Shown here piece by piece: positions 7,972 through 33,200 of a stretch of DNA of 58,368 bases. The first letter of the stretch is position 1, and each line of letters opens with the position of its first letter. The DNA comes from a virus (taxonomy: Duplodnaviria; Caudoviricetes). The position numbers and the translations under genes are program-made. Location: positions 1 through 58,368 of IMG/VR virus record IMGVR_UViG_3300025769_000126; one strand, written 5' to 3'. The notes beneath the pieces were generated by a model. It had not been told where the DNA came from. It saw nothing but the letters and a program-made list of their open reading frames with translations, and searched no databases.

Positions 7972-8021
7972 ATCTTGCACTAAAGGTTAGTCAAATGAGA
8001 GTTCGATTCTCTCTGCAAGAT
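7972..8021 (+). ncRNA. Minimal tRNA-like element (acceptor stem plus T-arm, no anticodon arm)
   Basis: ATCTTGCA/TGCAAGAT stem enclosing a perfect T-arm GAGAG-TTCGATT-CTCTC. Confidence 0.55.
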
Positions 8022-8023
8022 CT

Positions 8024-8173
8024 ATGAAATATGAACTAAAAAAAGAAAAGAACGAGAAAATAACAGTATTCCACGTGCTGCTGTTCTTAGTGTATGTATG
8101 GCAAACAACAGGTGTTTTGATACTTATTGGGTACTTAATAACTGGTAAACTTAACCCAATATTGTGGTTCTAA
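8024..8173 (+). CDS. Small membrane protein (49 aa)
   Basis: Read manually: MKYELKKEKNEKITVFHVLLFLVYVWQTTGVLILIGYLITGKLNPILWF. Confidence 0.65.
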   Translation: MKYELKKEKNEKITVFHVLLFLVYVWQTTGVLILIGYLITGKLNPILWF

Positions 8174-8180
8174 AAAAGGG

Positions 8181-8223
8181 TGACAATAGCCTGTTACTTC
8201 TTAACCTTAATAGGCTAATGTCA
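8181..8223. repeat. 43-bp inverted-repeat element, copy 2
   Basis: TGACAATAGCC-N21-GGCTAATGTCA. Confidence 0.9.
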
Positions 8224-8268
8224 CACTTTGCTTAAACTCCGCCCCTTGGGCGAAAATACACCGCCAGG

Positions 8269-8301
8269 TGTATAGCATAGTGTATAGCACTATGTATAGC
8301 A
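8269..8301 (+). repeat. Three tandem TGTATAGCA repeats, 12-bp period
   Basis: Copies at 8269, 8281 and 8293; single copy at 7554. Confidence 0.85.
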
Positions 8302-8338
8302 CTTCGCTTCGCCGTAAAGTCTTTGTTCCGTCGTCTCA

Positions 8339-8365
8339 CAAACTTATTACGATGCTCTATCGATA
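8339..8365 (+). promoter_or_regulatory. Class A motif, copy 3
   Basis: CAAACTTATTACGATGCTCTATCGATA. Confidence 0.75.
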
Positions 8366-8402
8366 ATATTACTGAATTTAAACTAATAAATATAGTAAAA
8401 CC

Positions 8403-8630
8403 ATGAAAGTATTAAAAGCAAAAAGATTCTTCTTAAGAAAATCTCTAATCGGACAAGACCAAGTAATTGAAGTTACCTTTAAAAACGGAAAAGTAGCAAA
8501 GTATAACCACGATGCAGTGTTTGAGGTAATGAAAAGTAAACTAGAAGAAATGAACTGTTGGGAAAAGTATAAAAGCTACACAAGTAGTACTTCAATACCT
8601 GTTCCAGCAAGAGAGTTACTGCTTGATTAA
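8403..8630 (+). CDS. Small early protein, paralog B
   Basis: Paralog of 7689..7925. Confidence 0.85.
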   Translation: MKVLKAKRFFLRKSLIGQDQVIEVTFKNGKVAKYNHDAVFEVMKSKLEEMNCWEKYKSYTSSTSIPVPARELLLD

Positions 8631-8645
8631 CAGCGAGTTGCAGAC

Positions 8646-8678
8646 AGAGGTGTGGAGTAACACCCTACACCTCTTTTT
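8646..8678 (+). terminator. Rho-independent terminator
   Basis: AGAGGTGT...ACACCTCT stem followed by a T-run. Confidence 0.7.
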
Positions 8679-8706
8679 AATACTTAAACAATAGTGCACC
8701 TTTTAA

Positions 8707-13264: not shown

Positions 13265-13696
13265 ATGGCAAGTACAAGAGAATTAGATTCGGTATATATG
13301 GGCATAGCTCATGAAGTAAGTATACTGAGTAAGTGTAACAGGAAGAAAGTCGGAGCTGTAATAGTAAAAGACAACAATATATTATCGTTTGGCTACAACG
13401 GAACACCGAGTGGCATGTGTAATGACTGTGAAGAAAACAATACTACTAAGTGGTATGTACTTCACGCTGAGTCAAATGCAATATTGAAAATTGCTAAGTC
13501 AACACTGAGCTCAGAAGGTAGCACGTTATACTGTACGCTTTCTCCGTGTGATGAATGTTGCAAACTAATTATGCAATCTGGGATAACTAGAGTTATATAT
13601 GAAGATGTTTACGAAAAATCTACAAAGGGATTAGATCTTATGATTGAGCACGGAATTGAGGTTGCAAGTTTATATAAAAACACAGCATGGAGTTAA
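13265..13696 (+). CDS. dCMP deaminase
   Basis: KVGAVIV, GYNGTPSG, HAESNAI and SPCDEC. Confidence 0.92.
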   Translation: MASTRELDSVYMGIAHEVSILSKCNRKKVGAVIVKDNNILSFGYNGTPSGMCNDCEENNTTKWYVLHAESNAILKIAKSTLSSEGSTLYCTLSPCDECCKLIMQSGITRVIYEDVYEKSTKGLDLMIEHGIEVASLYKNTAWS

Positions 13697-14235: not shown

Positions 14236-14760
14236 ATGAATATATTTTATTTAGACGCAGATCCAGATACGGCTGCTAGGTTACAGTACAACAAACACGT
14301 TGTAAAAATGGTTCTTGAGTCAGCTCAAATGTTATGCTCGGCGCATCATTTTCATGGCAATGGTGACAACGTTCCATACAAAGTAAGCCACATTAACCAT
14401 CCAAGCACTATCTGGACTCGTTCTAATACTAAGCATTACAATTGGTTATACAACCATATGATGGCTTTAGGAGACGAATATACTAATCGTTATAAGAAAA
14501 CACATCTTACAATAATTAAATGCAAAGATGCTCTTAAATGGCCTCCTATGGGTATGACTACGTCAGATTTTAAGCAACCTCCACAGGCAATGCCAGACAA
14601 ATATAAAAGCGAATGTAGTATTAAGGCTTATTGGAAATATTATATAGCGGAAAAACACACAGTGGCTAATAAAGACGAAAAAATTTATGAAGAATATCCT
14701 ATTAACTATTCATTAATAAGATTATTTAAACGAAAATTGAATATGAATTATACAACTTAA
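14236..14760 (+). CDS. Pyrimidine-dimer glycosylase / T4 endonuclease V-like protein
   Basis: MNIFYLD, KHVVKMVLESAQML, HINHPSTIW and PPQAMPD. Confidence 0.7.
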   Translation: MNIFYLDADPDTAARLQYNKHVVKMVLESAQMLCSAHHFHGNGDNVPYKVSHINHPSTIWTRSNTKHYNWLYNHMMALGDEYTNRYKKTHLTIIKCKDALKWPPMGMTTSDFKQPPQAMPDKYKSECSIKAYWKYYIAEKHTVANKDEKIYEEYPINYSLIRLFKRKLNMNYTT

Positions 14761-17584: not shown

Positions 17585-18316
17585 ATGAACAAAAAACAAA
17601 TTATAGACAAACTACGTGAAGATGAGCACTATTATGGACAGTTCGGTAAACAGTACTTAAGTAATAGTGACATCATAACGTTACTAACAAACCCTTTATG
17701 TTTTGGTAATCAAAGCAAACCGTCGCCAGCATTGTTGGTTGGTGGTTATTTTCACACGGCAATACTAGAACCTCACAAATTAAAGAGCTTCAAGATAATA
17801 CAGTCGTCAACTAGGAATACCAAAGTTTACAAAGAGATGTCAGGTGGCGAATTATGCCTGTTACAAAAAGAAGTTGATAATATAGAATTACTTACTGAAA
17901 AAGTATTATCTAATACTATATGTAAAGATCTTATACGTAATGGCGATACAATATACGAAGAACCTGGCATTAAGGAGATAAACGGTTATATGTGGAAAGG
18001 TAAAGCAGATATAATAAACAAAAGCGAGAAACTAATAATAGATCTTAAAACCACAAACGACATTAACTCGTTCAAATCTTCAGCTTGGAAGTACAACTAT
18101 GATAGCCAAGCTTACATTTACAGTCAAATATTTGGTTATGAGTTGATATTTATAGTTATAGATAAAAACACACACCAAATAGGAATATTTGATTGCTCAA
18201 CAGAGTTTATAGAACGCGGAATTGAAAAAGTACAGAAAGCCACAGAGGTTTATGAACTATTCTACGAAACAGAACACTTTGACAGAGATCAATATTTCAT
18301 CAACAAAACTCTCTAG
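17585..18316 (+). CDS. PD-(D/E)XK exonuclease (RecE/DUF3799-like)
   Basis: GGYFHTAILEP, KGKADI, IIDLKTT and YDSQAYIY. Confidence 0.85.
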   Translation: MNKKQIIDKLREDEHYYGQFGKQYLSNSDIITLLTNPLCFGNQSKPSPALLVGGYFHTAILEPHKLKSFKIIQSSTRNTKVYKEMSGGELCLLQKEVDNIELLTEKVLSNTICKDLIRNGDTIYEEPGIKEINGYMWKGKADIINKSEKLIIDLKTTNDINSFKSSAWKYNYDSQAYIYSQIFGYELIFIVIDKNTHQIGIFDCSTEFIERGIEKVQKATEVYELFYETEHFDRDQYFINKTL

Positions 18317-18321
18317 GTTTA

Positions 18322-18348
18322 CAAACTAAATACGATTAACCTAGGATA
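18322..18348 (+). promoter_or_regulatory. Class A motif, copy 9
   Basis: CAAACTAAATACGATTAACCTAGGATA. Confidence 0.75.
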
Positions 18349-18368
18349 ATAATAAAACAAAAAATAAT

Positions 18369-18545
18369 ATGAGAAAAACCAAAAGAAGAGGAGTAAAAGT
18401 TTGCACAGTAACCGGAATGAAAACCAAATTAGACAACTTTTACCCAAAACAAACGCACGTAAAAGCTGTTGACAATTTAAGGAGAAACACCGGAGCAACT
18501 AAAAACCAATTAATTAGAATGTTTAAACAGTTAAGTACTTATTAA
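18369..18545 (+). CDS. Small basic hypothetical protein (58 aa)
   Basis: Read manually: MRKTKRRGVKVCTVTGMKTKLDNFYPKQTHVKAVDNLRR... Confidence 0.7.
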   Translation: MRKTKRRGVKVCTVTGMKTKLDNFYPKQTHVKAVDNLRRNTGATKNQLIRMFKQLSTY

Positions 18546-18548
18546 AAA

Positions 18549-18872
18549 ATGGCAAGTATAATAGCAACAAGTATCGATCTTAGTAAGATTACTAAAGACA
18601 AAATTATTAACGGAAAAAAAGGTAAGTATTTACCTATTACTATCACGTTAAACGATGAACTAGATCAGTTTGGCAATCAAGGTCCAGTAGTTATTCAGCA
18701 GACAAAAGAAGAACGCGAAGCTAAAGTAGGCAAAACTTACTTAGGCAATGCGAAGGTTGTTTGGTCTAATGGAGTAAACGTTGAACCAGCCCCTAGAGAC
18801 GGGCAACAACAGAGATCACAACCGATGACTGTTAACACCACAGTTGTTGATGCTAACGATCTTCCATTTTAA
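18549..18872 (+). CDS. Single-stranded DNA-binding protein (putative)
   Basis: Beta-rich N-terminus, flexible linker, C-terminal NDLPF; lies between the exonuclease and the primase. Confidence 0.75.
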   Translation: MASIIATSIDLSKITKDKIINGKKGKYLPITITLNDELDQFGNQGPVVIQQTKEEREAKVGKTYLGNAKVVWSNGVNVEPAPRDGQQQRSQPMTVNTTVVDANDLPF

Positions 18873-18873
18873 T

Positions 18874-18966
18874 ATGGAACAATGTGAAATGTGTGGACAA
18901 GATATGTCACAGGAGGAATATGACTTCTGTGACATATGTCCAGATTGTAGAGACGGCCAACACTAA
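18874..18966 (+). CDS. 30-aa zinc-ribbon microprotein
   Basis: Read manually: MEQCEMCGQDMSQEEYDFCDICPDCRDGQH. Confidence 0.65.
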   Translation: MEQCEMCGQDMSQEEYDFCDICPDCRDGQH

Positions 18967-18978
18967 TTAAAAACTAAA

Positions 18979-20712
18979 ATGCAAACAACCGAGATAAATG
19001 GATTCACGATTGACCGGTTCAATCAATATGGCTTAAAAGAAGGGGCAAGTCAAGGTATATGTCCTCTTTGCTCACATAATAGAAAACCAAAAAACCAAAA
19101 AGCAAAATGTTCGTCTTATGATTGGGACAGAGGAATAGGTACTTGTCATAACTGTAACACATCGTTTCAATTACACACATACCAAAGAAAGGGTGCTAGT
19201 GAACGAAAGTATGTTAGACCAGAAACAAAACTAATGATGCAGGGTTTAACTCTGAGGAGTAAAGATACACCAACAACAGATAAAGTTTCGGAATGGTTCG
19301 AGTCTAGAGGAATATCTCAAAAGACATTAAACGAACTACACGTTGGTCAAGGTGCTGAATATATGCCTCAAACTGGTAAAGTAGAAAACACCATACAATT
19401 TAACTATATGATGGGTGATCAACTTATCAATGTTAAATACAGAGATGGTCGTAAAAACTTTAAGTTATACAAGGGTGCTGAAAAAGTATTTTACAATATA
19501 AATAGCATAATAGGTTATGATAGCTGTATTATAACCGAAGGCGAGATGGATGTGTTAGCACTTCATGAAGCTGGTGTTAAGAATGTAATATCGGTACCAA
19601 ACGGTGCAACATTAAATAACAACAATTTAGATTACTTAGACAACTGTATAGATTACTTCGAAGATAAAGAAAGAATACTGTTAGCGGTTGATAAAGACGA
19701 ACCGGGTCAAATGCTACAACAAGAGCTTGTCCGTAGGTTAGGTGCTGAGATCTGTTTCATAGTTGACTTTGATGATTGTAAAGATGCTAATGAGTATTTA
19801 ATTAAATACGGTGCGGAAAGCTTATCAGAATCAATAGCAAAAGCTAGACCATATCCACTAGAAAACGTAACAACGTTCAAAGATATTGAGAACGATATAA
19901 CAGACTTTGTTAAGAATGGCTTTAAGCCAGGTTTTCAAGTTGGTCTATCTAATTTTGATGATATATTTTCAACATACACTAAACAGTTTATAACAGTAAC
20001 GGGTATTCCTAGCTCTGGCAAGTCAGACTTTGTTGATCAAATGGTTGTTGGTTATAACCAAAACTATGGTTGGAAAACAGCGTTTGCCTCACCGGAGAAT
20101 CAACCAACGTATTTGCACGCACATAAACTAATGCGTAAAGTATGGGGTGATATGCCAAATGTGGGTGATATAGGTGGTGCAAAATGGAACGAAGTAGCTG
20201 AACACGTTAACGATCATTTTTTCTTCATAGATATGGATAAATATGATTTAGACTCAGTGTTACGTAAAGGTGCAGAATTAGTTAAGCGTAAAGGTATCAA
20301 ATGCTTAGTAATTGATCCATACAACAAAGTGCGAGATATAAATGCTAAGACTGACGATGTAAATCGTTACACGATGGATTACTTAATGAAGATAGAGATG
20401 TTTGCAAAAAAGTATGACTGCTTAGTTTTTATAGTAGCGCATCCAACTAAGATGTATAAAGGTAGTGATGGTAAAATTGAAGAACCAACTATGTATAACA
20501 TTAAAGGTGGTGGTGAATGGTACGACGCTAGTTATCACGGGTTACTGGTACACAGGGATTATGAAGCTGGTACAACTAAAGTTAAAGTTCTTAAGGTTAA
20601 GTTTCAAAACCTTGGAGAGAACGGTGCTGAGGCTTTGTTTACTTGGGATCCAGCCTCTGGAAGGTTTATACCTGAAATATCTATAAAATCTAATGACTTG
20701 CCGTGGGAATAA
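18979..20712 (+). CDS. Primase-helicase (T7 gp4/Twinkle-like)
   Basis: Zn finger CPLC...CHNC; TOPRIM ITEGEMD and DKD; Walker A GIPSSGKS; VIDP and VAHP. Confidence 0.95.
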   Translation: MQTTEINGFTIDRFNQYGLKEGASQGICPLCSHNRKPKNQKAKCSSYDWDRGIGTCHNCNTSFQLHTYQRKGASERKYVRPETKLMMQGLTLRSKDTPTTDKVSEWFESRGISQKTLNELHVGQGAEYMPQTGKVENTIQFNYMMGDQLINVKYRDGRKNFKLYKGAEKVFYNINSIIGYDSCIITEGEMDVLALHEAGVKNVISVPNGATLNNNNLDYLDNCIDYFEDKERILLAVDKDEPGQMLQQELVRRLGAEICFIVDFDDCKDANEYLIKYGAESLSESIAKARPYPLENVTTFKDIENDITDFVKNGFKPGFQVGLSNFDDIFSTYTKQFITVTGIPSSGKSDFVDQMVVGYNQNYGWKTAFASPENQPTYLHAHKLMRKVWGDMPNVGDIGGAKWNEVAEHVNDHFFFIDMDKYDLDSVLRKGAELVKRKGIKCLVIDPYNKVRDINAKTDDVNRYTMDYLMKIEMFAKKYDCLVFIVAHPTKMYKGSDGKIEEPTMYNIKGGGEWYDASYHGLLVHRDYEAGTTKVKVLKVKFQNLGENGAEALFTWDPASGRFIPEISIKSNDLPWE

Positions 20713-20975
20713 AAAAAGTACCAGAAGGCTATGCTATGACTGAGTATGAGATGGAAGCAAATAAATGGTGTGTTAACAATAATATTACCATAACAGTAAG
20801 ACAAGTTACTTGGAGGGAAAAGAAATACTATGTTGATATAGAAACAGGTAGGTTCCCTAATAGAAAGCTTATTGCAACGTCTCCAGAGAAATATAATTAC
20901 AAAACTGCACAAAAAAAGGCAGCAGAATACAGAGTTTATTACTATAATAAAAGAGAAATAAAAGATGAGGACTAA
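20703..20975 (+). CDS. Hypothetical protein
   Basis: ORF track; overlaps both neighbours. Confidence 0.7.
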   Translation: MGIKKVPEGYAMTEYEMEANKWCVNNNITITVRQVTWREKKYYVDIETGRFPNRKLIATSPEKYNYKTAQKKAAEYRVYYYNKREIKDED

Positions 20976-21606
20976 ATTTGAGAATGCTAACGAAGCATAT
21001 GAATACTTTTACGATAAGATATTAGTTGAAGGTATTGAGTTTGATAACACGAGAGCGCTATTTAATGTTGGCTTTTATATTACTAATCCAGGCATGAAGT
21101 CTATAACAAATATAGAACGTAAATGGAAATTACACTACGCTTATGCTGAATGGCAATGGTACTTATCTGGCGATCCTAATATAAGCAAGTTAGGATATAT
21201 ATACGGTAAAGTCCCTAAAATATGGAAACGTATGGCTGACAAGTATGGTGATGTTAATTCTAACTATGGGTACCAATGGCTAAGAGGTGATCAACTTGAA
21301 AAAGTAATTAATCTTTTAAAAGAAAATCCAAAAACAAGACAGGCTGCGATAAGTATATATGATGGCAAAGAAATAGACAAATATGATAACGACACGCCAT
21401 GTACTTATGCGATACAATTTACGATAATAAACAATGAGCTGTGTATGTCTGTCTATATGCGATCTAATGACCTCTGGTATGGTTTCTGCAATGACCAATA
21501 CCAATTTGCATCATTGCAGCAGTTAGTTGCAGACGAACTGTCTATGGACACCGGGTGGTACTACCACCACGCACATAATTTACACTTATATAATGATAAG
21601 ATTTGA
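20965..21606 (+). CDS. Thymidylate-synthase-fold enzyme, probably dCMP hydroxymethylase/methylase (T4 gp42-like)
   Basis: PKIW, VNSNYG, PCT, MRSNDLWYGFCND (Asp at the base-specificity position) and NLHLY. Confidence 0.8.
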   Translation: MRTKFENANEAYEYFYDKILVEGIEFDNTRALFNVGFYITNPGMKSITNIERKWKLHYAYAEWQWYLSGDPNISKLGYIYGKVPKIWKRMADKYGDVNSNYGYQWLRGDQLEKVINLLKENPKTRQAAISIYDGKEIDKYDNDTPCTYAIQFTIINNELCMSVYMRSNDLWYGFCNDQYQFASLQQLVADELSMDTGWYYHHAHNLHLYNDKI

Positions 21607-22400
21607 AATATAAAATATACCACATTTTTAATAAAAAGATCGGAGTAACACGTGATCTTTATAAGAGAGTTACGGAGCAACAAGGTTATGCTCCAGGAGA
21701 ATATGAAGTTCTACTCGAGTCAGATGATATAGATTTAGTATCAGACTTAGAGTTAGAACTTCAACAGTCTTATGGCTATAATGTTGATAGTAAACCATAT
21801 AACCAATTGTACAAAAACCAAAAACCAAATAATAATAATAATAATATGAAAATAAACGCAACAGAACAAACATCAACCTTTCCATGTCCAGTTAACAAGT
21901 TAAAAGGTAGGCTTATGGATAATAAAGGTTTGACTTGGGAAACAGACCACGGTGAATTTGAGATTAACAGTGAAACAATACCTTGGATAGTAGCTAACGC
22001 CAAGACATCTATGTATAACCCAAATAGATGTTATATCTACAACAAAGCTTATAACTATGTTTTCTTAACAGAAGATACTTATCCACAAGCCTACAGTCCA
22101 TCAAACCACAGTATAATATTTGAGCGTATAAGAAATTGGGCTCAAGAACGAGGGCTTTATGACTCTGGTGATTTAAAGACACAGTATGTCAAGTTAATAG
22201 AAGAAAGTGGTGAATTAGCTAGAGCTATATTAAAACACGACGATGATGAGTTTGTAGATGCTATAGGTGATATGGTTGTAGTATTAACCAATTTAGCACA
22301 TCTAGGTGGTACAACAATAGAACGTTGTATTGACTCTGCATACAACACTATAGCAAACAGAACTGGTAGCATGATAAACGGAACATTTGTTAAGGATTAA
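21603..22400 (+). CDS. Multidomain protein with C-terminal MazG-like NTP pyrophosphatase
   Basis: KLIEESGEL...DAIGDMVVVL; N-terminal KIGVTRDLYKR is GIY-YIG-like. Confidence 0.8.
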   Translation: MKYKIYHIFNKKIGVTRDLYKRVTEQQGYAPGEYEVLLESDDIDLVSDLELELQQSYGYNVDSKPYNQLYKNQKPNNNNNNMKINATEQTSTFPCPVNKLKGRLMDNKGLTWETDHGEFEINSETIPWIVANAKTSMYNPNRCYIYNKAYNYVFLTEDTYPQAYSPSNHSIIFERIRNWAQERGLYDSGDLKTQYVKLIEESGELARAILKHDDDEFVDAIGDMVVVLTNLAHLGGTTIERCIDSAYNTIANRTGSMINGTFVKD

Positions 22401-22615
22401 TGGCTATACGAGATCCAAAAAGTACTCACTACGAGTTATATAAAGGTACACAAGCTATCGACGTTATTGAGGCTGCTTTAACTAAAGATGAATTTATAGG
22501 TTTTTTGAAAGGCAACGCTTTGAAATATCAGCTACGTCTTGGTAAAAAAGATAATATGAGTAGAGAGTTTGAGAAAATAGAGTTTTACACTAAAGAAATA
22601 GAAAGATTAACATGA
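22400..22615 (+). CDS. DUF3310-like protein
   Basis: THY...QAIDVI...GFLKGNALKYQLRLGKK. Confidence 0.8.
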   Translation: MAIRDPKSTHYELYKGTQAIDVIEAALTKDEFIGFLKGNALKYQLRLGKKDNMSREFEKIEFYTKEIERLT

Positions 22616-22869
22616 GAAATTACGTAACAAGAACACGAGATCAAATAGTGCTAGATGTTATTGAGAAAATAGATAACAGAAGCGTTATGGGTAACGACAA
22701 ATATGGCGGAACCATGATGAAAGAGATAGAAAATGGTGAAAAAGATTTAAAAGACTTCATCATCGATGTACAAGAAGAATTAATGGATGCTTTATTATAC
22801 CTTGAATCTGCAAAACATTGTCTAAACGATGCTATACAAGATGCTGCACTACGAATGGTTGCCGAGTAA
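22612..22869 (+). CDS. All-alpha NTP-pyrophosphatase-like small protein
   Basis: RSVMGNDKYGGT...QEELMDALLYLE. Confidence 0.6.
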   Translation: MRNYVTRTRDQIVLDVIEKIDNRSVMGNDKYGGTMMKEIENGEKDLKDFIIDVQEELMDALLYLESAKHCLNDAIQDAALRMVAE

Positions 22870-23324
22870 TGAAGAATCGATCAAGAAAAAAAAGAGGCCC
22901 TGTCAGAAGTAACAAAGTTACCTATGACGGGGTGACTTTTGCCTCTGGTTTAGAAAAATATATGTATCGAGCGCTTAAAAAAGCTAAGATAAAATTTGAA
23001 TATGAGCCAAGAACATACCAACTGTTAGAGTCATTTGAGTTTAGTAGTTGCGCTATAGAAAGACAAGCTAATGGTAAGGGTGACTTTAAAGACCGAGGAA
23101 ACAAAAAAATACTTGGCATTAAATACACACCAGATTTTGAAGGCGTTGGTTGGACATGTGAAACAAAAGGTAGAGCAAATGATAGCTTCCCTATTAGATA
23201 CAAGTTATTTAAACATTGGGTTCAGAATAATGATCCTGGTAGGTTGCTTCTAAAGCCACAGTGTCAACGCGAGTGTGACGTAGCAATTGAATTAATACTA
23301 CAATTAAAGAATGAAAAGGAATAA
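22869..23324 (+). CDS. PD-(D/E)XK endonuclease (T7 endonuclease I/DUF1064-like)
   Basis: FASGLE, FEYEP, YTPDF and ETKG; start ATG 22869. Confidence 0.8.
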   Translation: MKNRSRKKRGPVRSNKVTYDGVTFASGLEKYMYRALKKAKIKFEYEPRTYQLLESFEFSSCAIERQANGKGDFKDRGNKKILGIKYTPDFEGVGWTCETKGRANDSFPIRYKLFKHWVQNNDPGRLLLKPQCQRECDVAIELILQLKNEKE

Positions 23325-23472
23325 TAAGATCGTAACCGCACAACAAAAAAGACTAGCACGAATAAAATATGGTGAACGTCAAGTTGACAAATGGATAAAA
23401 TGGAGATTGCAGCGATTTGGCTGTGTAAAGTATAAAGATTTAATAAAACAACAAGAAAAAAACGGAATATGA
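23311..23472 (+). CDS. Small basic hypothetical protein (53 aa)
   Basis: Read manually; ATGA overlap with the next gene. Confidence 0.6.
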   Translation: MKRNNKIVTAQQKRLARIKYGERQVDKWIKWRLQRFGCVKYKDLIKQQEKNGI

Positions 23473-23651
23473 GAACAGACTGGAGTTTAAGTATCGGGCT
23501 ATATCCTGGTATGTTGTTCGGATTTAGAACATACGAACACGAAAGTGAAACCTTTAATAAGGTAACACATGTATTTTATTTGCCATTTGTAGATTTGGCT
23601 TTAGAAATAATGAGAATAAATAACGAAGAAGAAAACAATGACGAAGGATAA
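23469..23651 (+). CDS. Hypothetical protein
   Basis: ORF track. Confidence 0.7.
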   Translation: MRTDWSLSIGLYPGMLFGFRTYEHESETFNKVTHVFYLPFVDLALEIMRINNEEENNDEG

Positions 23652-25509
23652 AAAGTTGTTAAGTGATATAACTGTGCACAATAAGTATGCGCGTTATTTA
23701 AAAGATGAAAACCGTAGAGAGACATGGTTAGAGCTAGTTACCAGGAACAAGGATATGCACATAAAAAAATATCCAAACTTAAAAGATAACATTGAGGAAC
23801 TATATGTTAAATACGTAATACCTAAGAAAGTATTACCTTCGATGAGATCGTTACAGTTTGGTGGTAAAGCAATAGAGCTAAATAACTCTAGAATATACAA
23901 TTGTGCATTTATGCCTGTTGATAGTATACACTCTTTTAGTGAAGCTATGTTTTTATTATTAGGTGGAACAGGTGTTGGCTATTCTGTGCAAAATCACAAT
24001 ATAGAAAAACTACCTGAGATACGTAAACCTAACTACAATAGACACAAGAGATACATAGTACAGGATAGCATAATGGGTTGGGCTGACGCTATTAAAACGT
24101 TATTTAAGTCCTACACCGGAAAGCTAACATCGCATATAACATTTGATCTATCTGATATTAGAGAAAAAGGTGCTGCGTTAGTAACAGCTGGAGGTAAAGC
24201 TCCTGGACCTGAGCCACTTAGGTTGTGCTTAGTTCAAATTGAAGCCATACTTAGACAGAAAAAAGATCGACATCAATTAACAGATATAGAGTGCCACGAT
24301 ATAATGTGTCATATAGCTGATGCTGTTTTAGCTGGTGGTATAAGAAGAGCAGCTATGATCTCGTTGTTTGATTTAAACTCAGAAGCAATGCTTAGCGCTA
24401 AGGTTGGAGCTTGGTGGGAAACAAACCCACAGAGAGGTCGAGCTAATAATTCAGTATCATTATTAAGACACAAGATCGATAAAGAGACCTTCTTTAATCT
24501 AATGGAAAGAGTAGAAGCATCTGGATCTGGTGAACCTGGTATATACTTAACCAACGATAAAACCTGGGGTACAAATCCATGTTGCGAAATAGCTTTAAGA
24601 CCATATCAGTTTTGTAATTTGACTGAGATTAACATGTCTACAATTAAAGATCAAGAGGACTTTGATAACTGTAGTTCTGCTGCGGCATTCTTAGGAACGT
24701 TACAAGCTGGTTATACAGACTTTCATTATCTAAGGGATATATGGCAAAGGACTACAGAAAAAGATGCGTTAATCGGCGTATCTATGACGGGTATAGCTGA
24801 TAAAAATGTTTTAGGTTTAAGCTTCAACAAAGCCGCAGAGACTGTTAAGAGCACAAATGCTTTTTATGCTAATAAAATAAATATAAACCAAGCGGCAAGG
24901 GCTACTTGTGTTAAACCAGCTGGAACAACTAGTTTAGTTTTAGGTACTAGTAGTGGGATTCATGCTTGGCATAGTGAATACTATATTAGAAGAATGCGTA
25001 TAGGTAAAAATGAAGCTATATATAAATACTTAAACGCTGTGTTACCAAAAGGGTTTTTAGAAGACGAGTTCTTTAGTCCAACAACAACAGCAGTTTTATC
25101 TATTCCACAAAAAGCACCAGATGGAGCTATAACTAGAAAAGAGTCTGCATTAGATTTGCTTGAAAGAGTTAAACAAATATCTAAAGATTGGGTTCAACCA
25201 GGCACAGTTGATGGTGCTAATACACACAATGTGTCTTGCACTGTTACAGTTAAACCTAGTGAATGGAAAGAAATTAGTAGCTGGATGTGGGAGAACAAAA
25301 AATACTATAATGGTCTATCTGTATTACCAGAAGATGGTGGAACATATAAGCAGACACCGTTTGAAGACTGTTCTAAGGAAACATATGAGAGAATGATGAA
25401 CGATTTATTAAGCGTTAATCTTGACATGTCATTAGTTTCAGAGGATTTTGATGCGACGTCGTTCTCAGAAATACTTGCTTGTGCTGGTGGTGCTTGCGAA
25501 ATCAAATAA
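23638..25509 (+). CDS. nrdJ: Class II (adenosylcobalamin-dependent) ribonucleotide reductase
   Basis: YNCAF, GTGVG, RRAAMI, TNPCCEI, KPAGT and C-terminal CAGGAC; no beta subunit gene seen. Confidence 0.9.
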   Translation: MTKDKKLLSDITVHNKYARYLKDENRRETWLELVTRNKDMHIKKYPNLKDNIEELYVKYVIPKKVLPSMRSLQFGGKAIELNNSRIYNCAFMPVDSIHSFSEAMFLLLGGTGVGYSVQNHNIEKLPEIRKPNYNRHKRYIVQDSIMGWADAIKTLFKSYTGKLTSHITFDLSDIREKGAALVTAGGKAPGPEPLRLCLVQIEAILRQKKDRHQLTDIECHDIMCHIADAVLAGGIRRAAMISLFDLNSEAMLSAKVGAWWETNPQRGRANNSVSLLRHKIDKETFFNLMERVEASGSGEPGIYLTNDKTWGTNPCCEIALRPYQFCNLTEINMSTIKDQEDFDNCSSAAAFLGTLQAGYTDFHYLRDIWQRTTEKDALIGVSMTGIADKNVLGLSFNKAAETVKSTNAFYANKININQAARATCVKPAGTTSLVLGTSSGIHAWHSEYYIRRMRIGKNEAIYKYLNAVLPKGFLEDEFFSPTTTAVLSIPQKAPDGAITRKESALDLLERVKQISKDWVQPGTVDGANTHNVSCTVTVKPSEWKEISSWMWENKKYYNGLSVLPEDGGTYKQTPFEDCSKETYERMMNDLLSVNLDMSLVSEDFDATSFSEILACAGGACEIK

Positions 25510-25530
25510 CTATTTAATTTAAAACTATAC

Positions 25531-25561
25531 ATGAGCCATAAATACAACTTTTATGGCTCAT
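25531..25561. terminator. Hairpin between converging transcription arms
   Basis: ATGAGCCATAAA-N7-TTTATGGCTCAT, a perfect 12-bp stem. Confidence 0.6.
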
Positions 25562-25574
25562 TTAACCAACAAAA

Positions 25575-25852
25575 ATGATCTATTAAATACTACTTTTTTA
25601 GAGATACAGATAACGAAAGCAACCTTTTGGATGGGAAAACTTACCACGCAGCAGGTTATGTTGAAAAACTATATTGCGAAATAGGAAAGCCGAACAGGAG
25701 TGGGAAAGACCTTGCAGTAATTTTTTTTTGAACCATTTGAAGGAACAATAACAAGTGCTTGGAGAGCATTGGATGAAGTTGAACTATTTGAGGTTGCTGA
25801 ATGGGAATACAAACAACTGATTGAAAAGTTTGATATGTTCTTTGATTATTAG
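25575..25852 (+). pseudogene. Probable frameshifted gene remnant
   Basis: KYYFFRDTD...DLAVIFF frame stops at the T9 run (25721-29); an adjacent frame continues FEPFEG...MFFDY*. Confidence 0.4.
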
Positions 25853-25871
25853 CAACTGTTATGCTTTCGTT

Positions 25872-26246
25872 TTAATGCAGCAACCCAAACAACAAAGCAA
25901 TAATAACCCCTCCTAACGCAATCTTACGTGTTCTAAGCAACTTTCTATTTTTCTGTATTGTTTCATCTTTATAGTAAATTAGAGAGTCGTTTAGAATGCT
26001 TGAGATATTCTCCCAGTTCTTTATTTCCATTTTATATGTTAGCATCTTCTTGTCTTGTAAACCAATGACAGCACCTTGTTCGCTCCTAGTGTTAAGTAAA
26101 TCAACAATCATTATGTTGTCTAACCTATATTGGTCAACTGTTGTACACACACTATCTCTCTTGAGCGTATCTTGTGCGCAAGCTATCCCTGATAATAAGC
26201 TGAACGCTGTCGTTACTAAGATAAATATACTTAATCTCTTTTTCAT
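25872..26246 (-). CDS. Spanin-like envelope protein
   Basis: Signal peptide (...SGIACAQ), coiled coil and C-terminal TM; overlaps the upstream gene. Confidence 0.55.
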   Translation of the reverse strand: MKKRLSIFILVTTAFSLLSGIACAQDTLKRDSVCTTVDQYRLDNIMIVDLLNTRSEQGAVIGLQDKKMLTYKMEIKNWENISSILNDSLIYYKDETIQKNRKLLRTRKIALGGVIIALLFGLLH

Positions 26247-27221: not shown

Positions 27222-30200
27222 TTACTTTTTAGTTTTTATTTCGTATTTTTTACCATCAAAGATATATGATGTCTTACCTGCGGCTTTAGCTTCTTTTTTA
27301 GCTTTAGCTTTAGCTTTCCTTTTTTCAACTTGCTTTTCTTTTTTTAACCTTTTGTATACAATCTTTATGTAGTCTTGTTCTTCATTTTTAACATTAACAT
27401 CCCAAGTCCTCCAACCAAGACCTAAAGCCATTCTTTGGTATGCATTATTCCTGCTATCTAAAGCTTCTGATACACCTTTTACTTCTACTAAAGCTCTATC
27501 TAGTGGTAGGTTTAAAGCTGCTGAAGCTACACTAGCCCATTTTTGATATACAGGAGATGGATTTAATTTTCCGTCTAAGGTAACATCCCAACCCATTGCG
27601 TTTATAACATCTTTTTCGTACCTATCGGTTTGTATTGCACTATATATTTTTCTAAACTTAGACCCAATAGGTGGAGACACATTCATTAATTCTAAAATAG
27701 TTTGTGTATGATCTGCAGTATAACCTTTCTCTTCTTCTTTGTAATATCTAAGTATACCGTTTTTTAATGTTGACACAACTGCACCAGCTAATCCACTACC
27801 TCTTAATAAAGTATCAATCATGTTGTTTATTATTTTTTCGTACTTTTTATCTAATACTTCTTTTCTTTTTTCGTCATCATCATCTGGGTTAAACTCAGGT
27901 AACATAGCAAATAATGCAGTTTGTAACGATGCAAATATAAGGTTCTGTATAAACCCATAATAGGCTATTTTACTTAGGTTTGTTTTCCAATCACCTCTAC
28001 CAGCAATTAAGTCTTGTCCAGCTTTCTTTATTAACCTAGTATATTGCATCGGAGTATTTTGAAAAGCTAATATTAAACGTCCTAAATGACTAGCTTGTTG
28101 CTTAGATACGAGCATAGGATCTCCAGATTGCTGTGTTTCATCTGATATTGTACTAAAGTCCTCAAACGCCTTAGCTTCTGCTTGAGCATCAGACATCCCT
28201 TGTTTTTTGTATGTCTTAGTTCTATTTATTAAGAATGATGCACCACCTGTTGCTATTGCAAAACTATCAGCTATTTGTGTTGGCTTGAAACCTATCTTGA
28301 GTAAGTACGCTATAACAGCAGAGGCTTTGTCTTTTGCATTTATTGCTTGACTAGCAATTTCAGCTTCTTGAATATCTGACTTTAAACCAGCACGTCTTTC
28401 TTTTAGTTTGTCAGAGTTAAATATTTTAGCCCAAGCTTTCCAATAAGCTGGTTGGTTAGCAAAAGCTGCACCCGCTTTCAATGGATTGTTATCACTCCAG
28501 TTCATGAAGTTAGTAAAAGATAACATCTGAAGCAATGCGGATCTTCTATTGAAGAACATTATAGTACCAACTGAGTTGTTCACCCAGTTCAACCATCTTT
28601 GTTCTATATCTCCAGATCGTCCAGGTCTGTTACTACCAGATTTCATTCTATCTATAGAGTTAACTAAAGCTTTGACATAGTTGGTTCCATATACAGCTTC
28701 TAACTTGTTCAGGTTTGTTTTACTAAATATCTCGTCAGCATTTTCTATAAACTCTGCAAGGTACTCCTTTCTGTTTATGTTGTCACTTATGTCGTTTAAG
28801 TCTTTTAATATACTACCAATATCCCAGTGTTCTTTTGGTTCAACCCATGCTTCCTTTTTAGATAGAGCCTGCAGTCCTTCTGCAAAGCCAACTAAGTCTG
28901 GGTCGTTTTCAACGAGTTTACTTATTTTTTTCTGAGACCTCTTGTATACACCAGGTATAGTTTGTCCTTGTTTATTCCAGAGATATATCCTAATTGCTTG
29001 ATCTATAGTATAATCAGTGTCTGCGATCTTATCACCAAGTCTATTTCTAATATCATACATCTCTAGAAGAGCCTTGTAATCCTTTTTTAGAGCTTGACTA
29101 GCTTGCTCGAGTGCTGCAACACCACGCACATACGGTCTAACGAGGTTCGTTTCGAAAAACTCTTGATCTGCTTCACCTTGTTTACCTTTGCCAGCTAAAG
29201 TATAAGATGTTAAACCTCTAAAGTCTTCTGCACTAGGAGGAATAAAGTATTTGTATTTACCTTTACTAGCGCCTTTCTTTCTAGCTATAACCTGCGAATA
29301 AAAAGCTTTAGCTTTAACACCCTTATTACGCTCTACCATTTTGTTAAGATCAGAGCTCATGCTTTTTTTCCTACTGGCTACAGCTTGTTGTACTTTGCTT
29401 TTTACATCAAACGTCTCTAATACTTCTTTAACAGCAGTTACATTTTTAATAGCATCGTCAACAAAATAAAAGTCATTATATCCTTCAGCAACTTTACTAA
29501 CCATCCAATCAGCTTTAGCCTGAGCAGTGCTGTTAGCTAAACCTGTTATGTTTTTAATAGGTATTTCTAAACCTAAACCTTTCATGAAGGCATGTATAGC
29601 ACGCTCTGAAGCCTCAGGTCTAGCCGTTAATATAAAGATGTTTTTGTTACCAAATTTATCTATAGCTTTTTTAATTCTAGGAATCAATGGACCTGGAGTA
29701 CCTTGAACCACTTTGTTAAATTCGCTAAAATCAAAAGTAGCACCCTCCTCTAGTAATGATTCTCCATTGCTAGCAAACTCAGCTGGCGTTATCTTATAGG
29801 TTTCGTCATCTTGGTTTACTATAACTTTGCTTTCACTAAAAGCTAAAGTATCATCAAAATCATACACACTTATACCTTTTGGGTTTTGGTGGTAAGACAT
29901 GCTTCTAGATTTGGCAATAGCTTTTTGTTGAGCGTTTATTTTTCTAGCCTCTAATAGCTTGTTGGTTTTGTTTGTTAGTTCTTTGTTGTACTGCGTTAGC
30001 GTTTTTGATTCACTGAACTTTTGTAGCTTTATTTCTGGTAACTTGGTTTTAACAGCATTTGAAGTACTGTCCATAGCAGAGACAACACTAGGGTCGGCAT
30101 ACCTAGCCACGTATACGGCATCTTCTAAGTAAGCTTCTTCGTTGAAAAATATATTACCACCAGGCATACTTGATCTATAGAAATCACTTAAAACACGGTC

Positions 30201-33200
30201 GTGTATTTTAGGTATTATAGCTACTTTATAGTTTTTAAATATTTCATCAAGTGTTCTTGTATAGTTGTCATAAGTTATATACCTAGCAACCTCCTGTAGT
30301 ATTTCAACAGCTGGTATCGTATGCTCATATCTATAGTCTTTATCACCTAAATTTTTCGTTTTAAAGAAATAAGATGGAATTGCTGCTGTTCTAACCAATC
30401 CTCTTATGCTAGAGTTAAACCAATTTAAAATCATGGTTAAGTCTTCTTTGCTTAATTCTTTTTTGTCGTATTGCTCTTTAAGCTTATTTGCTATCTTTAA
30501 AAACCCTTTTCTTTGGTTGATAGCATAATCTTGCCTCTCGCTTAAAGTCCATTTAGTATTGTCCCAGTCGCTAAAGTTGTTTGCAGTTTGTCCTGGTGAA
30601 GCTTTTATTTTAAATTTCTTATCATCAAATTCATAAGTTCTAGAGGTTTTATCATATTTAACGTCGTAGCCATTGCTACGTAGAAAACCAAACCAATCGT
30701 CCCTGCTTAAGAAAAGAAAACTCTGAGTAATAGGTTTTAGCTCTCCATTTTTACCATAGTAACCAACAAACTCATCTGCAACTTGGTTTTCAAAGTCAGC
30801 TTTTTCAAACTTAACAGGTACACTGTACACCTTACCCCACCCAGCACTTATTGTTGGCATTAGTGTATCTATAATTTCAGAAAAACCAAAATCTTCTACT
30901 AGCGGTGTAAAAACATTTTTAACAAAAGATGATCTAACTCTGTTAACATTTTCTATGTTCGAGAACTTTGATTTAAACGGATTGCTATCAACAACGACAC
31001 CAACCTTAGTTATCCATGTCTTATATTTGGTCGAGTAGCTTTTCATTATGTCACGCTTACCAGATGCAGCACCAGCAATTTCGCTTTTAGAAAACCCTGA
31101 TACACGCATCTCTTGTCTAATGAAAGTGTTAGCAGCTAAAGATGAATATGTTTTAGCCATACCTTTGAGTAACTGTCCAATGGGACTACGTAATTCTCCT
31201 TTAGGCAACACATTTGGAACCCCCTTTGGTGTAATACCTATAGCAGTTTTTAGGTCTTCTAATGTCTCCTTAGATATACTGCCGATAAACTCAGGTTTAA
31301 GCTTTCTAACATTAGTTTGACTTGTTAAACCTTTACTTCTACCTTTTGGACTGGTTAATTTACCGGTTGGGTCGATGTGTGGTTCATAAAAGTAGTCAAG
31401 TACTCTTTTCGGTAAACCTAGAGCAGTACCTTTTATGTTTTTTGGTACATCTAGTGTTTCTTTACCTATAACTGCTTCTGGTAAAGCTATATTGTATTTA
31501 GGGAGTATTTTAACAAACTTTGCTAAGTTGTCTGCTTTAAAGAAAAACTGTTGTATTGTTCTAGCTTCCACTATAGAACCTAAGTTTGCTGCGGCTTCAT
31601 CTATTTTTTTAGCGGGTATACCTATTATTTGCTCACCTATTTCACCAGCATACTGCTTAGCTATATTTTTAAACGTAGGGCTACCTTCAGGTTCTTTAGT
31701 TATAGTTATATTCTCTGGTGCGCCAGTAAACCCAAGGGGATTTATGGTTGGTCTTTCTTTTACACCAACAGTCTCTTGCACGGGAACATCAACACTATCG
31801 TCAGCTACTTGTCTAGCTTCTTTAACATCTAAACTCTCGGCTCTTCTCTCTGCTTCTATTGCTAGCTTTTTCTTAGCGTCTAGCTTACTAAATCTAGTGT
31901 TAGCAAATATAAACTCACCAAATGTAATTGGTTCACCACCCTCTGTTTTTCTAACAGCAGCTGGATCATAGTTTATCATTCTATCTACTACACCTTCAAG
32001 CATTAGTTCTGCTTCTTCTTTTGATATAGCCCTAGAGTTTACATAATTATATATTGCCCCGCCTGGCAAGGTTGATTCATACGCTTTGTTGAACACGTCT
32101 CTAGATAAGAAGTCTTCCTTTGTTTTTATGCTTTCTGGAACTAGTGAATTTATATCACTAAGAACACTTTTAGATGGCTTAACGCCTCTTGTTGTTTTCT
32201 CTGCATCGGTTTTAAGCTTTTTAAACATCTCACTTTCTTCTACAGACTTTAAGTCTTCTTTGTTAAAAGTGCCATCGTTTATTTTTTTAGCCATATCAGA
32301 AATAAACTTAACTACAGCTGGTTGTGTTGAAATATCTGAAGGTATGTTTGCTTTATTCTTAAATAAACTACCTAGATTATATAAGAATGTTCTACTTACT
32401 TTTTTGTCTTTTTTAATCCTACCAATACGCTCTATAAAACCAACAATTATCTCCTCAGAGTTAAACATTATATCATCAGTCTCGCTAACTGTTTCAACAA
32501 CTTGTGCTGGATCTACAAATCCAAACATTTCTTCAGCTATGTCTGGATGTGTTTCCTCTAAAAAGTTCTTTATTTCTTTTGCTACAACATCTACGTCAAA
32601 CCCGTTGTCAATCCAATCCCATAAAACTAAGTGACTAACTTCGTGTGTTCCTGTGTTAGCTCTTTCGTTCTTGATTTGTGACTCTTTTACTGTTATGTAT
32701 GTATATACACCGTCTATTTTAGATGCTTGGCCATTAAGTGCGCCACCATCTTCAATTACACCCCTCCAAAACTTCTTCTCCGAATCACTAGTTTTTTCAT
32801 CATCTATTTTTTTGTTTGCAAAATCAGTGGCTTCTTTTTCTGTTTCAAAGTTATAACCTTTGCTTTTTTTATCTTTAACACTTTTCAAGACAGCATTAGC
32901 CGCTTTATTGTTTTTATCAACTTCCTCTGCTAGATATATCTCGTAAGCTTCTTTGTTTAACGCACCTTCGTTTGGATCTAAACCTTCGCTAAGTAACTTA
33001 TCTTTTGCTTGCTCTGTTATTTTGTTATATCGTGCCTCATCATTAACTTTAAGTAATTCAAACTTATTACTACTCTGCTTAAATGCTTCTATAGATACTT
33101 GACTTATAGCATACTGTTCTGCTAGTTCATTTATTTTTGTTTTTTTGTACCTATTACTTGCTTTAGAGTTTTGCACCGCTACAGCCTCATTTCGCAGTTC

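Follow-up and report, generated by a model that had tools for sequence, protein, structure and literature searches.

The stretch of DNA analysed here, hereafter the window, is the whole of the Caudoviricetes virus record IMGVR_UViG_3300025769_000126, a sequence of 58,368 bp with linear ends and a CheckV completeness of 92%. This work concerns two adjacent early genes in it, one encoding an enzyme of the ThyA family and the other a MazG fusion protein, which may together lead to a C5-modified cytosine in the DNA of the phage. The window is AT-rich (36% G+C). The minus strand carries its late genes (terminase, an 808-residue portal, virion proteins, endolysin, GroEL- and GroES-like proteins) and the plus strand its early genes, from about 7.7 to 25.5 kb (sigma-factor-like protein, Erf, exonuclease, primase-helicase, the cassette studied here and a class II ribonucleotide reductase). 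The two genes stand within a conserved string which runs primase-helicase, small open reading frame (ORF), ThyA-like gene, MazG fusion, 85-residue ORF, DUF1064 gene and reductase:

20965-21606, plus strand: ThyA-family enzyme of 213 residues with a signature of deoxycytidine monophosphate (dCMP) 5-hydroxymethylase (PF00303, 1.5e-28, 100.1 bits against a cut-off of 24.3).
21603-22400, plus strand: three-domain MazG-fusion protein of 265 residues (Pfam MazG PF03819, 28.2 bits against a cut-off of 22; PRA-PH, 22.5 against 21.3).

The TTG start of the second gene overlaps the stop of the first (ATTTGA), and the two would be translationally coupled. A preliminary description of this locus had proposed a cytosine-modification cassette whose first gene would be annotated as thyA, and pipelines and several source databases do indeed call it a thymidylate synthase; the MazG-like neighbour that it named is likewise present, above the Pfam cut-off given in the line above.

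Among solved structures, the best match to the ThyA-like enzyme is the CMP hydroxymethylase MilA (3e-21), which scores above ThyA and T4 gp42, and all eight NCBIfam ThyA equivalogs fall far under their cut-offs (best 80.1 against 327 bits). Window positions 21460-21495 translate to RSNDLWYGFCND, and HMMER comparison with solved structures places D177 opposite an Asp of MilA (RANDAFRGAVSD) and N177 of E. coli ThyA (RSCDVFLGLPFN). Counted in codons from 20965, D143 is at 21391-21393, C146 at 21400-21402 and D177 at 21493-21495; C146, in the motif DTPCT, is aligned with the catalytic Cys of ThyA, MilA and gp42 (C148 in T4). The Asp codon and the motifs PKIW and G.VNSNYG of the preliminary description (VPKIWKR and GDVNSNYG in the 213-residue ORF) are correct to the base according to the ORF translation and HMMER, and the T4 motifs that it cited are found in the gene 42 translation, which reads TPKIW, EINSNYG and RSNDVVFGFRND.

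Fourteen active-site positions (E. coli numbering: E58, W80, Y94, 143, C146, 147, 165, R166, S167, 169, G173, 177, H207 and Y209) were compared in an alignment with E. coli ThyA, T4 gp42 (gene 42, L083), RB69 gp48 and SPO1 gp29. The window enzyme is identical to T4 gp42 at 14 of 14 (E58, W80, Y94, D143, C146, T147, M165, R166, S167, D169, G173, D177, H207, Y209), and the control proteins display their published residue states in the same alignment. At positions 143, 147, 165, 169 and 177, in this order, the proteins read as follows:

Window enzyme: D, T, M, D, D.
T4 gp42, dCMP hydroxymethylase: D, T, M, D, D.
E. coli ThyA: L, H, Q, D, N.
SPO1 gp29, deoxyuridine monophosphate (dUMP) hydroxymethylase: D, N, N, D, N.
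RB69 gp48, 5-hydroxy-dCMP synthase: E, T, M, N, D.

Position 143 was counted straight from the Cys (DTPCT in the window, DFMCT in T4, LAPCH in E. coli). A Ser, within NSNYG, occupies the position of T4 Ser94, and the determinants of deoxyribose, Ser167 and Arg126, are present (in RSND and KTRQ). The protein ends in HLYNDKI, four residues past HLY, without a C-terminal tail, an end shorter even than the short tail of T4 gp42. None of the marks of an ordinary ThyA (Asn177, Leu143, His147, Gln165, the C-terminal tail, an equivalog-level score) is found in it. Asp169 is kept at the place where 5-hydroxy-dCMP synthases have Asn, and only Asp177 is found of the three features expected of a dCMP methyltransferase (Asp177, a hydrophobic residue at 143, a sealing tail).

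The meaning of these residues is given by published work. With N177D, dCMP becomes the preferred substrate (PMC13326640), in agreement with the role of the Asn/Asp switch in the choice between dUMP and dCMP that is given in the preliminary description. In the same source, a bulky hydrophobic side chain at 143 presumably keeps water out, Asp or Glu at 143 goes with hydroxymethyl products, and D169N is the mark of the flavin-using 5-hydroxy-dCMP synthases. In T4 dCMP hydroxymethylase, the substrate water is activated by Asp145, which stands at Cys-3, and the D145N variant has no activity; Ser94 is a conserved residue, and the active site is left unsealed, without the C-terminal tail that seals the site of thymidylate synthase for hydride transfer (PMC6400193). 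Ser167 and Arg126 mark the deoxyribose enzymes, MilA having Ala and Lys (PMC5175136). Positions 177 and 147 best separate the ThyA homologues of cytosine-modified environmental contigs from those of unmodified ones (PMC8670742). Read in this light, the sequence supports dCMP as substrate, deoxyribose, dependence on folate and a hydroxymethyl product. Hydroxymethyl is preferred to methyl on account of the Asp at Cys-3 and of the lack of a C-terminal tail, and a 5-hydroxy product is disfavoured because Asp169 is retained. By these residues the enzyme would be neither an ordinary ThyA nor a 5-hydroxy-dCMP synthase nor a CMP hydroxymethylase, and it carries every sequence feature of a dCMP hydroxymethylase that could be tested. 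We are rather confident that it would modify C5 of dCMP, and consider a hydroxymethyl product likely, if with a little less assurance; the choice between hydroxymethylcytosine, methylcytosine and another modified cytosine, left undecided in the preliminary description, is narrowed towards the first by the Asp at Cys-3, the absent tail and Asp169.

The signature is conserved in a large family. In IMG/VR, 386 of 389 pattern matches were confirmed, and the locus counts given here cover the best 80 of these 386, which are 66-91% identical. The ORF caller recovered the gene in 73 of these 80 loci, and DTPCT, D169 and D177 occur together in all 73; position 21495 often varies naturally from C to T, which does not alter the amino acid (GAC to GAT). 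A word-indexed search returned at least 8000 candidates at E <=1e-5, the 120 best being 69-100% identical and mostly of 213-229 residues, and an exhaustive search of 50% cluster representatives gave 8430 matches at E <=0.001 and 40 at <=1e-30. From the top 150 of these representatives, those with 195 residues or more, 117 in number, were kept as full-length; 116 of them combine the Asp at Cys-3, the Cys, Asp169 and Asp177, while Asp177 itself is present in 117/117 representatives and 73/73 IMG/VR homologues. The phylogeny that had been proposed as a check was run as a quick maximum-likelihood tree of 78 rows, made of 8 references and the first 70 of the 117 representatives, 47 being left out. 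It splits all Asp177 rows from the two Asn177 rows (95 in the Shimodaira-Hasegawa-like approximate likelihood ratio test), forms a polytomy among the Asp177 rows and places gp42 on a long branch, and it neither supports nor contradicts a specific kinship between the window enzyme and gp42.

The second gene of the cassette encodes three domains, which AlphaFold2 predicted with confidence from a 31-sequence alignment, with a mean predicted local distance difference test score (pLDDT) of 85.8:

Residues 1-72 (21603-21818, plus strand): T5orf172/MUG113-like beta-beta-alpha-beta-alpha domain, from Pfam matches in homologues.
Residues 81-157 (21843-22073, plus strand): alpha/beta domain to which no family was assigned, from the AlphaFold2 model.
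Residues 170-265 (22110-22397, plus strand): MazG nucleoside triphosphate (NTP) pyrophosphohydrolase domain, from Pfam, an invariant acidic motif and the fold.

The Pfam domain, the acidic motif and a four-helix fold all place the third domain among the all-alpha NTP pyrophosphohydrolases. PF03819 matches 31/31 homologues of the fusion, E200, E201, E204, E216, D219 and D223 are invariant, and the fit to 1vmg is close (VIA Z 9.9, root mean square deviation 2.0 over 82 aligned residues). The structural neighbours of the domain include MazG chains, mouse and human dCTPase (6sqw, 7mu5), the S-2L MazG-like protein and PRA-PH, and hhalign gave no sequence link to T4 gp56 (probability 2%). The first domain is more elusive: T5orf172 matches 9/31 homologues, with a best E value of 5.4e-5, the window's own copy reaching just 0.074, and an Atlas lead for residues 1-72 agrees with T5orf172/MUG113. 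PHROGs gave nothing for residues 1-166, and searches with the full-length protein (Foldseek pdb, VIA wide), whose lists were filled by MazG matches, returned no structural match for the two N-terminal domains. These domains (window 21603-22073) are nevertheless conserved and confidently folded, and are joined in the window's copy by an Asn low-complexity run. The fused architecture, of about 250-290 residues, is kept in most relatives, and a stand-alone MazG of about 97-100 residues is found in six loci (L045, L053, L065, L066, L068, L077). Two contigs of 151 nt from a metatranscriptome library are identical to 21686-21813 and 21859-21969 of the fusion gene; DNA carry-over is possible, and they are not counted here as evidence of transcription.

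The two genes are tightly linked. A homologue of the MazG fusion is the next plus-strand ORF after the ThyA-like gene in 66 of the 69 loci that have such an ORF, the exceptions being L008, L032 and L082. A second set of loci, fetched by the primase-helicase and sharing contigs with the first, comprised 78 loci, 70 of them with at least 2.5 kb downstream. Both genes are present in 68 of these 70 relatives, and none of the 70 was a close relative devoid of the module. In the two others (L158 and L164), the MazG fusion is preceded by a ThyA of canonical type with a natural N177D (GLPYDIA). Over 278 residues it shares 38% identity with E. coli ThyA, and it has LPPCH, QRSAD and an entire C-terminal tail; the copy of L164 (11990-12810, plus strand) is intact and that of L158 (11909-12825, plus strand) is broken across three frames. 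The L164-type ThyA, which combines Asp177, a hydrophobic residue at 143 and a sealing tail, has the features expected of a dCMP methylase and is a candidate for this activity. The slot before the same MazG fusion is thus occupied by either of two unrelated Asp177 ThyA types, which fits a module that replaces cytosine.

Restriction sites were also compared between phages with and without this module, a comparison that the preliminary description had not proposed. Palindromic 4-mers were scored against a second-order Markov expectation, and the comparators were six structural relatives without any ThyA homologue (the positive control of this search was found 3/3). In the window, GATC occurs 146 times against 162 expected (0.90) and CCGG 26 times against 33, and no C-containing 4-mer palindrome is fully lost. 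For GATC, the 52 module-bearing loci of 12 kb or more have a median ratio of 1.07, and 3/52 lie below 0.6; in the six comparators the observed/expected ratios are 0.00, 0.27, 0.00, 0.49, 0.57 and 0.40 (Mann-Whitney p 6e-5, uncorrected for relatedness). At least one C-containing 4-mer palindrome is entirely lost in 4 of the 6 comparators:

MW202828: GATC, 0 against 199 expected; CCGG, 0 against 26.
ElemoF: CATG, 0 against 149 expected.
Panino: GATC, 0 against 263 expected; CCGG, 0 against 78.
phi40:1: CGCG, 0 against 35 expected.

By contrast, only 2 of the 52 module-bearing loci (L055, L068), both with gene contents unlike those of the window's locus type, have a palindrome at or below 0.25 for an expectation of at least 12, and in the second locus set 3/71 were flagged, with no total loss. 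Such retention would be expected of DNA that the module has rendered insensitive to restriction, and the comparison points the same way as the reading of a C5-modified cytosine. In the Flavobacteriia phages without a ThyA homologue (MW202828, ElemoF, Panino, phi40:1; L091-L100, L182-L185), several 6-mers are absent too, and the purging of sites, which is strong, is not the same in each phage.

From a mechanistic point of view, the class II ribonucleotide reductase of the phage would supply deoxynucleoside triphosphates (dNTPs), including deoxycytidine triphosphate (dCTP). The MazG fusion would turn dCTP into dCMP, thereby removing the competing canonical nucleotide and feeding the hydroxymethylase, which would convert dCMP and methylene-tetrahydrofolate into 5-hydroxymethyl-dCMP (5hm-dCMP). 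The latter would be phosphorylated by a host kinase or by an unassigned phage protein, such as the DUF3310 protein related to T7 gp1.7 that is described below, and built into phage DNA by the host replisome, the phage bringing only its primase-helicase. The outcome would be cytosines partly or wholly present as 5-hydroxymethylcytosine (5hmC) and poorly cut by host restriction enzymes. We rate the whole of this pathway, up to a modified cytosine in virion DNA and with the enzyme as a minimal, 213-residue form of a T4 gp42-type dCMP 5-hydroxymethylase, at somewhat better than even. Phosphorylation is its weakest link, because no kinase was found and because ThyA homologues expressed in E. coli without their cognate kinase gave only trace incorporation (PMC13326640).

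Several points weigh against this reading. The window enzyme has a Gln in place of the second Arg of the phosphate-binding RR pair of thymidylate synthase and T4, the rule for position 143 is a published correlation together with one mutagenesis study in T4, and the tree, with its Asp177 polytomy, the long branch of gp42 and only two Asn177 outgroups, does not group the enzyme specifically with T4 gp42. Specificity for dCTP cannot be read from the MazG sequence, and the structural neighbours of the domain span many MazG specificities. PHROG scans of early ORFs of at least 90 residues and of large late ORFs found no deoxynucleoside monophosphate (dNMP) kinase and no glycosyltransferase or other enzyme decorating hydroxymethylcytosine, and neither DNA_pol_A (PF00476) nor DNA_pol_B (PF00136) was found in the 58,368-bp record, so that these absences, noted in the preliminary description, hold; such PHROG and Pfam negatives leave room for small or novel proteins, and a missing gene could lie outside the record, since this is 92% complete. 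Of the parts that would complete a T4-type system (kinase, glycosyltransferase, polymerase of its own, nuclease for cytosine-containing DNA), these scans found none, and the host polymerase would have to accept the modified dNTP, as no phage polymerase was found. With regard to restriction sites, the lowest ratios in the window are those of GGCC (0.60) and CATG (0.65), and two comparators avoid sites only moderately. The comparators share the structural module only, their replication modules being different (tblastn of 11 window proteins gave few weak matches), and their hosts and waters differ as well, so that the contrast could reflect unequal host restriction loads.

Among the other explanations, a dCMP methyltransferase of the Xp12 kind, giving phage DNA with 5-methylcytosine while MazG keeps the same dCTP-clearing role, survives best and is still unlikely. 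Asp177 would suit any dCMP-specific ThyA homologue, and N177D alone converts thymidylate synthase into a dCMP methylase (work cited in PMC8670742 and PMC13326640); the canonical-type Asp177 ThyA in the same slot in 2/70 relatives moreover suggests that methylation may be an interchangeable solution in this group. The window enzyme itself, however, has Asp rather than a bulky hydrophobic residue at Cys-3, lacks the sealing tail and agrees with gp42 at all 14 positions, the methylase signature used here being defined from the engineered mutant and L164.

In a second alternative, which we regard as improbable, the dCMP deaminase of the phage would convert 5hm-dCMP into 5hm-dUMP, leading either to a modification at thymine positions (5-hydroxymethyluracil, 5hmU, or a derivative) or to a roundabout salvage of pyrimidines. 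This deaminase, which had been missed in the preliminary description, lies in the same early region, about 7 kb upstream of the cassette:

13265-13696, plus strand: dCMP deaminase of 143 residues (phrog_174, 6.9e-55).

The AT-rich genome would agree with such a route, and ThyA domains on modified contigs co-occur with PRA-PH (MazG-like) and dCMP deaminase domains (PMC8670742). Against it, the deaminase is present in 5/80 related loci within the retrieved flanks, and is not part of the conserved module, in contrast with the near-universal pair of ThyA-like and MazG genes, and the window scans found no kinase, pyrophosphorylase or pyridoxal phosphate (PLP) enzyme that would process 5hmU. T4, too, has a dCMP deaminase next to gp42, without a 5hmU outcome.

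It is also improbable, to a slightly greater degree, that the module acts on the nucleotide pool only, draining dCTP and dCMP in order, for example, to stop the host's DNA synthesis or to weaken a defence based on nucleotides, with no incorporation. The scans, which found neither a kinase for the modified monophosphate nor a phage polymerase, are in line with this view. It leaves unexplained, however, why restriction sites are kept by module-bearing phages and purged in relatives and why two Asp177 ThyA types alternate in one slot, and a drain of dCTP would starve the replication of the phage itself. Finally, an ordinary thymidylate synthase that, with the reductase and the dCMP deaminase, would raise dTTP for an AT-rich genome, the DNA being unmodified, is very improbable: the database names, the commonness of this nucleotide set in phages and the lack of any other ThyA homologue in the record to use the dUMP of the deaminase speak for it, but Asn177, Leu143, His147, Gln165 and the tail are replaced or missing, the eight equivalogs remain below their cut-offs, all close homologues carry the Asp177 signature, and restriction sites are retained, unlike in the relatives without the gene.

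The reading of a dCMP hydroxymethylase acting with MazG can be extended, doubtfully, to the N-terminal domains of the fusion. T5orf172 and MUG113 are families which we take to belong to the GIY-YIG clan. The fusion might then be a single-polypeptide enzyme of cytosine exclusion, whose MazG domain would destroy dCTP and whose nuclease-like N-terminal domain would attack unmodified, cytosine-containing host DNA. T4 splits these roles between two proteins, gp56 and the GIY-YIG endonuclease II. With the hydroxymethylase, such a fusion might suffice for full hydroxymethylcytosine substitution through the host replisome in a phage devoid of polymerase and kinase, and substituted cytosine would then be common in aquatic podophages of Bacteroidota type, a proposal to which we give a small chance.

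The remaining genes of the string, and a neighbour which is not part of it, are the following:

18979-20712, plus strand: primase-helicase (phrog_239, 1.1e-78), which heads the conserved string.
22400-22615, plus strand: DUF3310 protein of 71 residues (PF11753, 3.8e-16; labelled 'nucleotide kinase' in PHROGs).
22612-22869, plus strand: conserved protein of 85 residues, predicted to form a two-helix hairpin (43 homologues in related loci).
22869-23324, plus strand: DUF1064 nuclease-like protein (PF06356, 5.1e-6; phrog_190 'Holliday junction resolvase', 6.7e-11).
23638-25509, plus strand: class II (adenosylcobalamin-type, RTPR-like) ribonucleotide reductase (phrog_367, 6e-131; TIGR02505, 4.2e-80, under its cut-off).

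The preliminary description had seen in this neighbourhood a parallel to the T4 logic of removing dCTP and degrading unmodified DNA. Its core, a ThyA homologue acting on dCMP with MazG to yield a C5-modified cytosine, agrees with all the sequence determinants that could be tested; the three parts that it drew from the 85-residue ORF, DUF1064 and DUF3310 are not supported. The DUF3310 protein is present as described, and occupies this position in 6/80 related loci, which sets it outside the core. It is 38% identical to residues 124-189 of T7 gp1.7 (BLASTP, 66 residues, E 5e-14), the C-terminal third of that 196-residue protein, residues 1-123 having no counterpart, so that the homology does not extend over the full length; it is a lead for the missing kinase and no more. 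Going by titles and abstracts, no functional study of DUF3310 was found in the literature. The 85-residue ORF had been taken for a second all-alpha pyrophosphatase, and no such likeness could be detected: hhalign against the MazG-fusion profile gave a probability of 0.3%, no Pfam family matched at E <0.001 in 33 members, and the best VIA matches (Z 5.9) were coiled coils only. Its invariant residues are D10, R23, G27, Y31, Q54, E55, E56, D59 and Y63, and AlphaFold2 (pLDDT 83.9) predicts helices at 11-40 and 46-84. The downstream endonuclease exists in the form of the DUF1064 protein, which probably begins with the ATG at 22869, a TTG at 22818 opening the longest ORF. It lies downstream of the MazG gene in nearly all relatives and is an ordinary gene of the replication module, for which no tie to the breakdown of unmodified DNA was seen. 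The reductase slot is filled in relatives either by this class II enzyme or by a two-subunit reductase.

The mechanism proposed here would be the T4 scheme already known, in which a ThyA homologue and a dCTP-clearing pyrophosphohydrolase modify C5 of cytosine before replication. With T4 gp42 (PDB 1b49, 1b5e, 6a9b), the window enzyme shares the ThyA fold, the active-site positions and the Ser94 equivalent described above, the lack of a tail, and the motifs PKIW, NSNYG and RSND..GF.ND; an all-alpha NTP pyrophosphatase partner is also common to both, since 7mu5, 6sqz and 5ie9 match the dCTPases of RB69 and DLP3 (PMC13326640, Table 1) as well as the MazG domain of the window. By contrast, the two enzymes are only about 30-36% identical over 140 residues (213 residues against 246 in gp42), the window partner is an adjacent MazG fused to two extra domains without sequence relation to gp56, and no gp1-type dNMP kinase, glucosyltransferase or phage polymerase was found in the window. 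MilA (PDB 5b6d), from mildiomycin biosynthesis, has Asp at both the 143 and 177 positions and differs by Ala176 and Lys133, which go with its preference for ribose and stand where the window enzyme has Ser and Arg, and by a C-terminal extension of about 100 residues. RB69 gp48 and DLP3 gp80, the 5-hydroxy-dCMP synthases of PMC13326640, share Asp177 and an acidic residue at 143; their diagnostic D169N is absent from the window enzyme, Asp169 being kept in 73/73 close homologues.

The closest homologues in cultured phages are WAX07047.1 of the BF503P2 type, named 'deoxycytidylate 5-hydroxymethyltransferase' (43% identity), and those of Lactobacillus phage ATCCB (37%) and Enterococcus phage VPE25 (35%). 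They have DTPCT or DEPCT with Asp177, the BF503P2 protein having a short C-terminus (226 residues), and in ATCCB the gene adjoins an annotated beta-glucosyltransferase. These phages belong to other lineages and hosts, and BF503P2 has two ThyA-like genes and a dUTPase with no adjacent MazG fusion; no experimental data on the DNA of the three were found in the literature. In BF503P2, a cultured gut phage of Bacteroides, the two Asp177 genes (L001:5121-5927 and 8001-8681) flank the dUTPase gene, and one copy (DKLCT) has diverged strongly, Leu replacing E58 and Tyr replacing W80. The MetaGPA contigs (PMC8670742) offer a further likeness, the trio of ThyA, PRA-PH and dCMP deaminase being present in the window and Asp at 177 with Thr (for His) at 147 being the 'modified' state; they come from other samples, no lineage is named for them, and the carbamoyltransferase characterised there is absent from the window. 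What is new with respect to known systems is the minimal size of the enzyme, the fused and adjacent MazG, the fact that no kinase, glycosyltransferase or polymerase was found, and the lineage.

As to this lineage, the portal protein is 54% identical to that of the uncultured podovirus MW202828, 44-47% to those of Flavobacterium Elemo phages and Maribacter phage Panino, and 25-37% to those of Cellulophaga and Tenacibaculum phages, and megablast of window 18000-26000 against 50,697 phage records gave no match. The sequencing runs that contain window DNA, all of them examined as Logan contigs, in which base modification leaves no sign, are labelled as freshwater, soil, sediment and seawater metagenomes, and close protein homologues also occur in Tara samples. 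Judging from these sequences, a widespread group of aquatic phages probably replaces the cytosine of its DNA to escape host restriction enzymes. No paper was found that ties a dCMP hydroxymethylase to MazG and phage; among the papers listed, none connects the enzyme to Flavobacterium, Cellulophaga or marine phages, and PMC8776804, on North Sea flavophages, contains none of the relevant terms. If the proposal is true, a base substitution so far associated chiefly with T-even coliphages would be commonplace in an abundant aquatic lineage, and a gene carried by 386 related IMG/VR stretches and by many more metagenome clusters would be mis-annotated as thymidylate synthase throughout metagenome databases. 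A minimal two-gene system without phage kinase or polymerase would be useful for asking what the host replisome and kinases tolerate, and the finding would matter for predicting hosts and for virome methods based on restriction, deamination or nanopore base-calling. The Asp177 ThyA types that alternate before one MazG fusion would then constitute a natural experiment on hydroxymethyl versus methyl cytosine.

A different phage type (L045:120-4613, also L053, L065, L066, L068, L072 and L074) associates the ThyA-like gene with a stand-alone MazG of 97 residues and with four genes before them, which encode two proteins of about 300 residues (fused into 639 residues in L068), a PLP-dependent enzyme (PF00291, 1.9e-10) and a protein of 186 residues. 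The first of the two 300-residue proteins gives a faint hint of T4 beta-glucosyltransferase (E 0.026), and these genes may form a hypermodification cluster based on this enzyme.

Further features of the window and of its relatives were recorded. An ATP-dependent DNA ligase of about 277-298 residues lies upstream in most related loci (e.g., L025:3089-3922; phrog_114, 7.7e-74); PHROG scans of the window revealed none, and no window ORF matches the ligase of the relatives. DNA ligase domains are also among the MetaGPA associations (PMC8670742). A protein of 174 residues (14236-14760), kept in most relatives, strongly matches phrog_624, labelled 'DNA binding protein', and only just reaches the pyrimidine-dimer DNA glycosylase family PF03013 (23.2 bits, cut-off 23). 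An ORF of 2714 residues (27222-35366, minus strand) and another of at least 1107 residues (2-3322, minus strand) have no PHROG match. The latter and the ORF at 57997-58368 (minus strand) both run off the record, with frames one base apart; the genome in this record is therefore probably permuted or not quite complete. The phage encodes both chaperonins, a GroEL-type chaperonin at 5001-6599 (minus strand; phrog_5725, 3.5e-141) and a GroES-like co-chaperonin at 55739-56335 (minus strand; phrog_13932, 8.3e-21).

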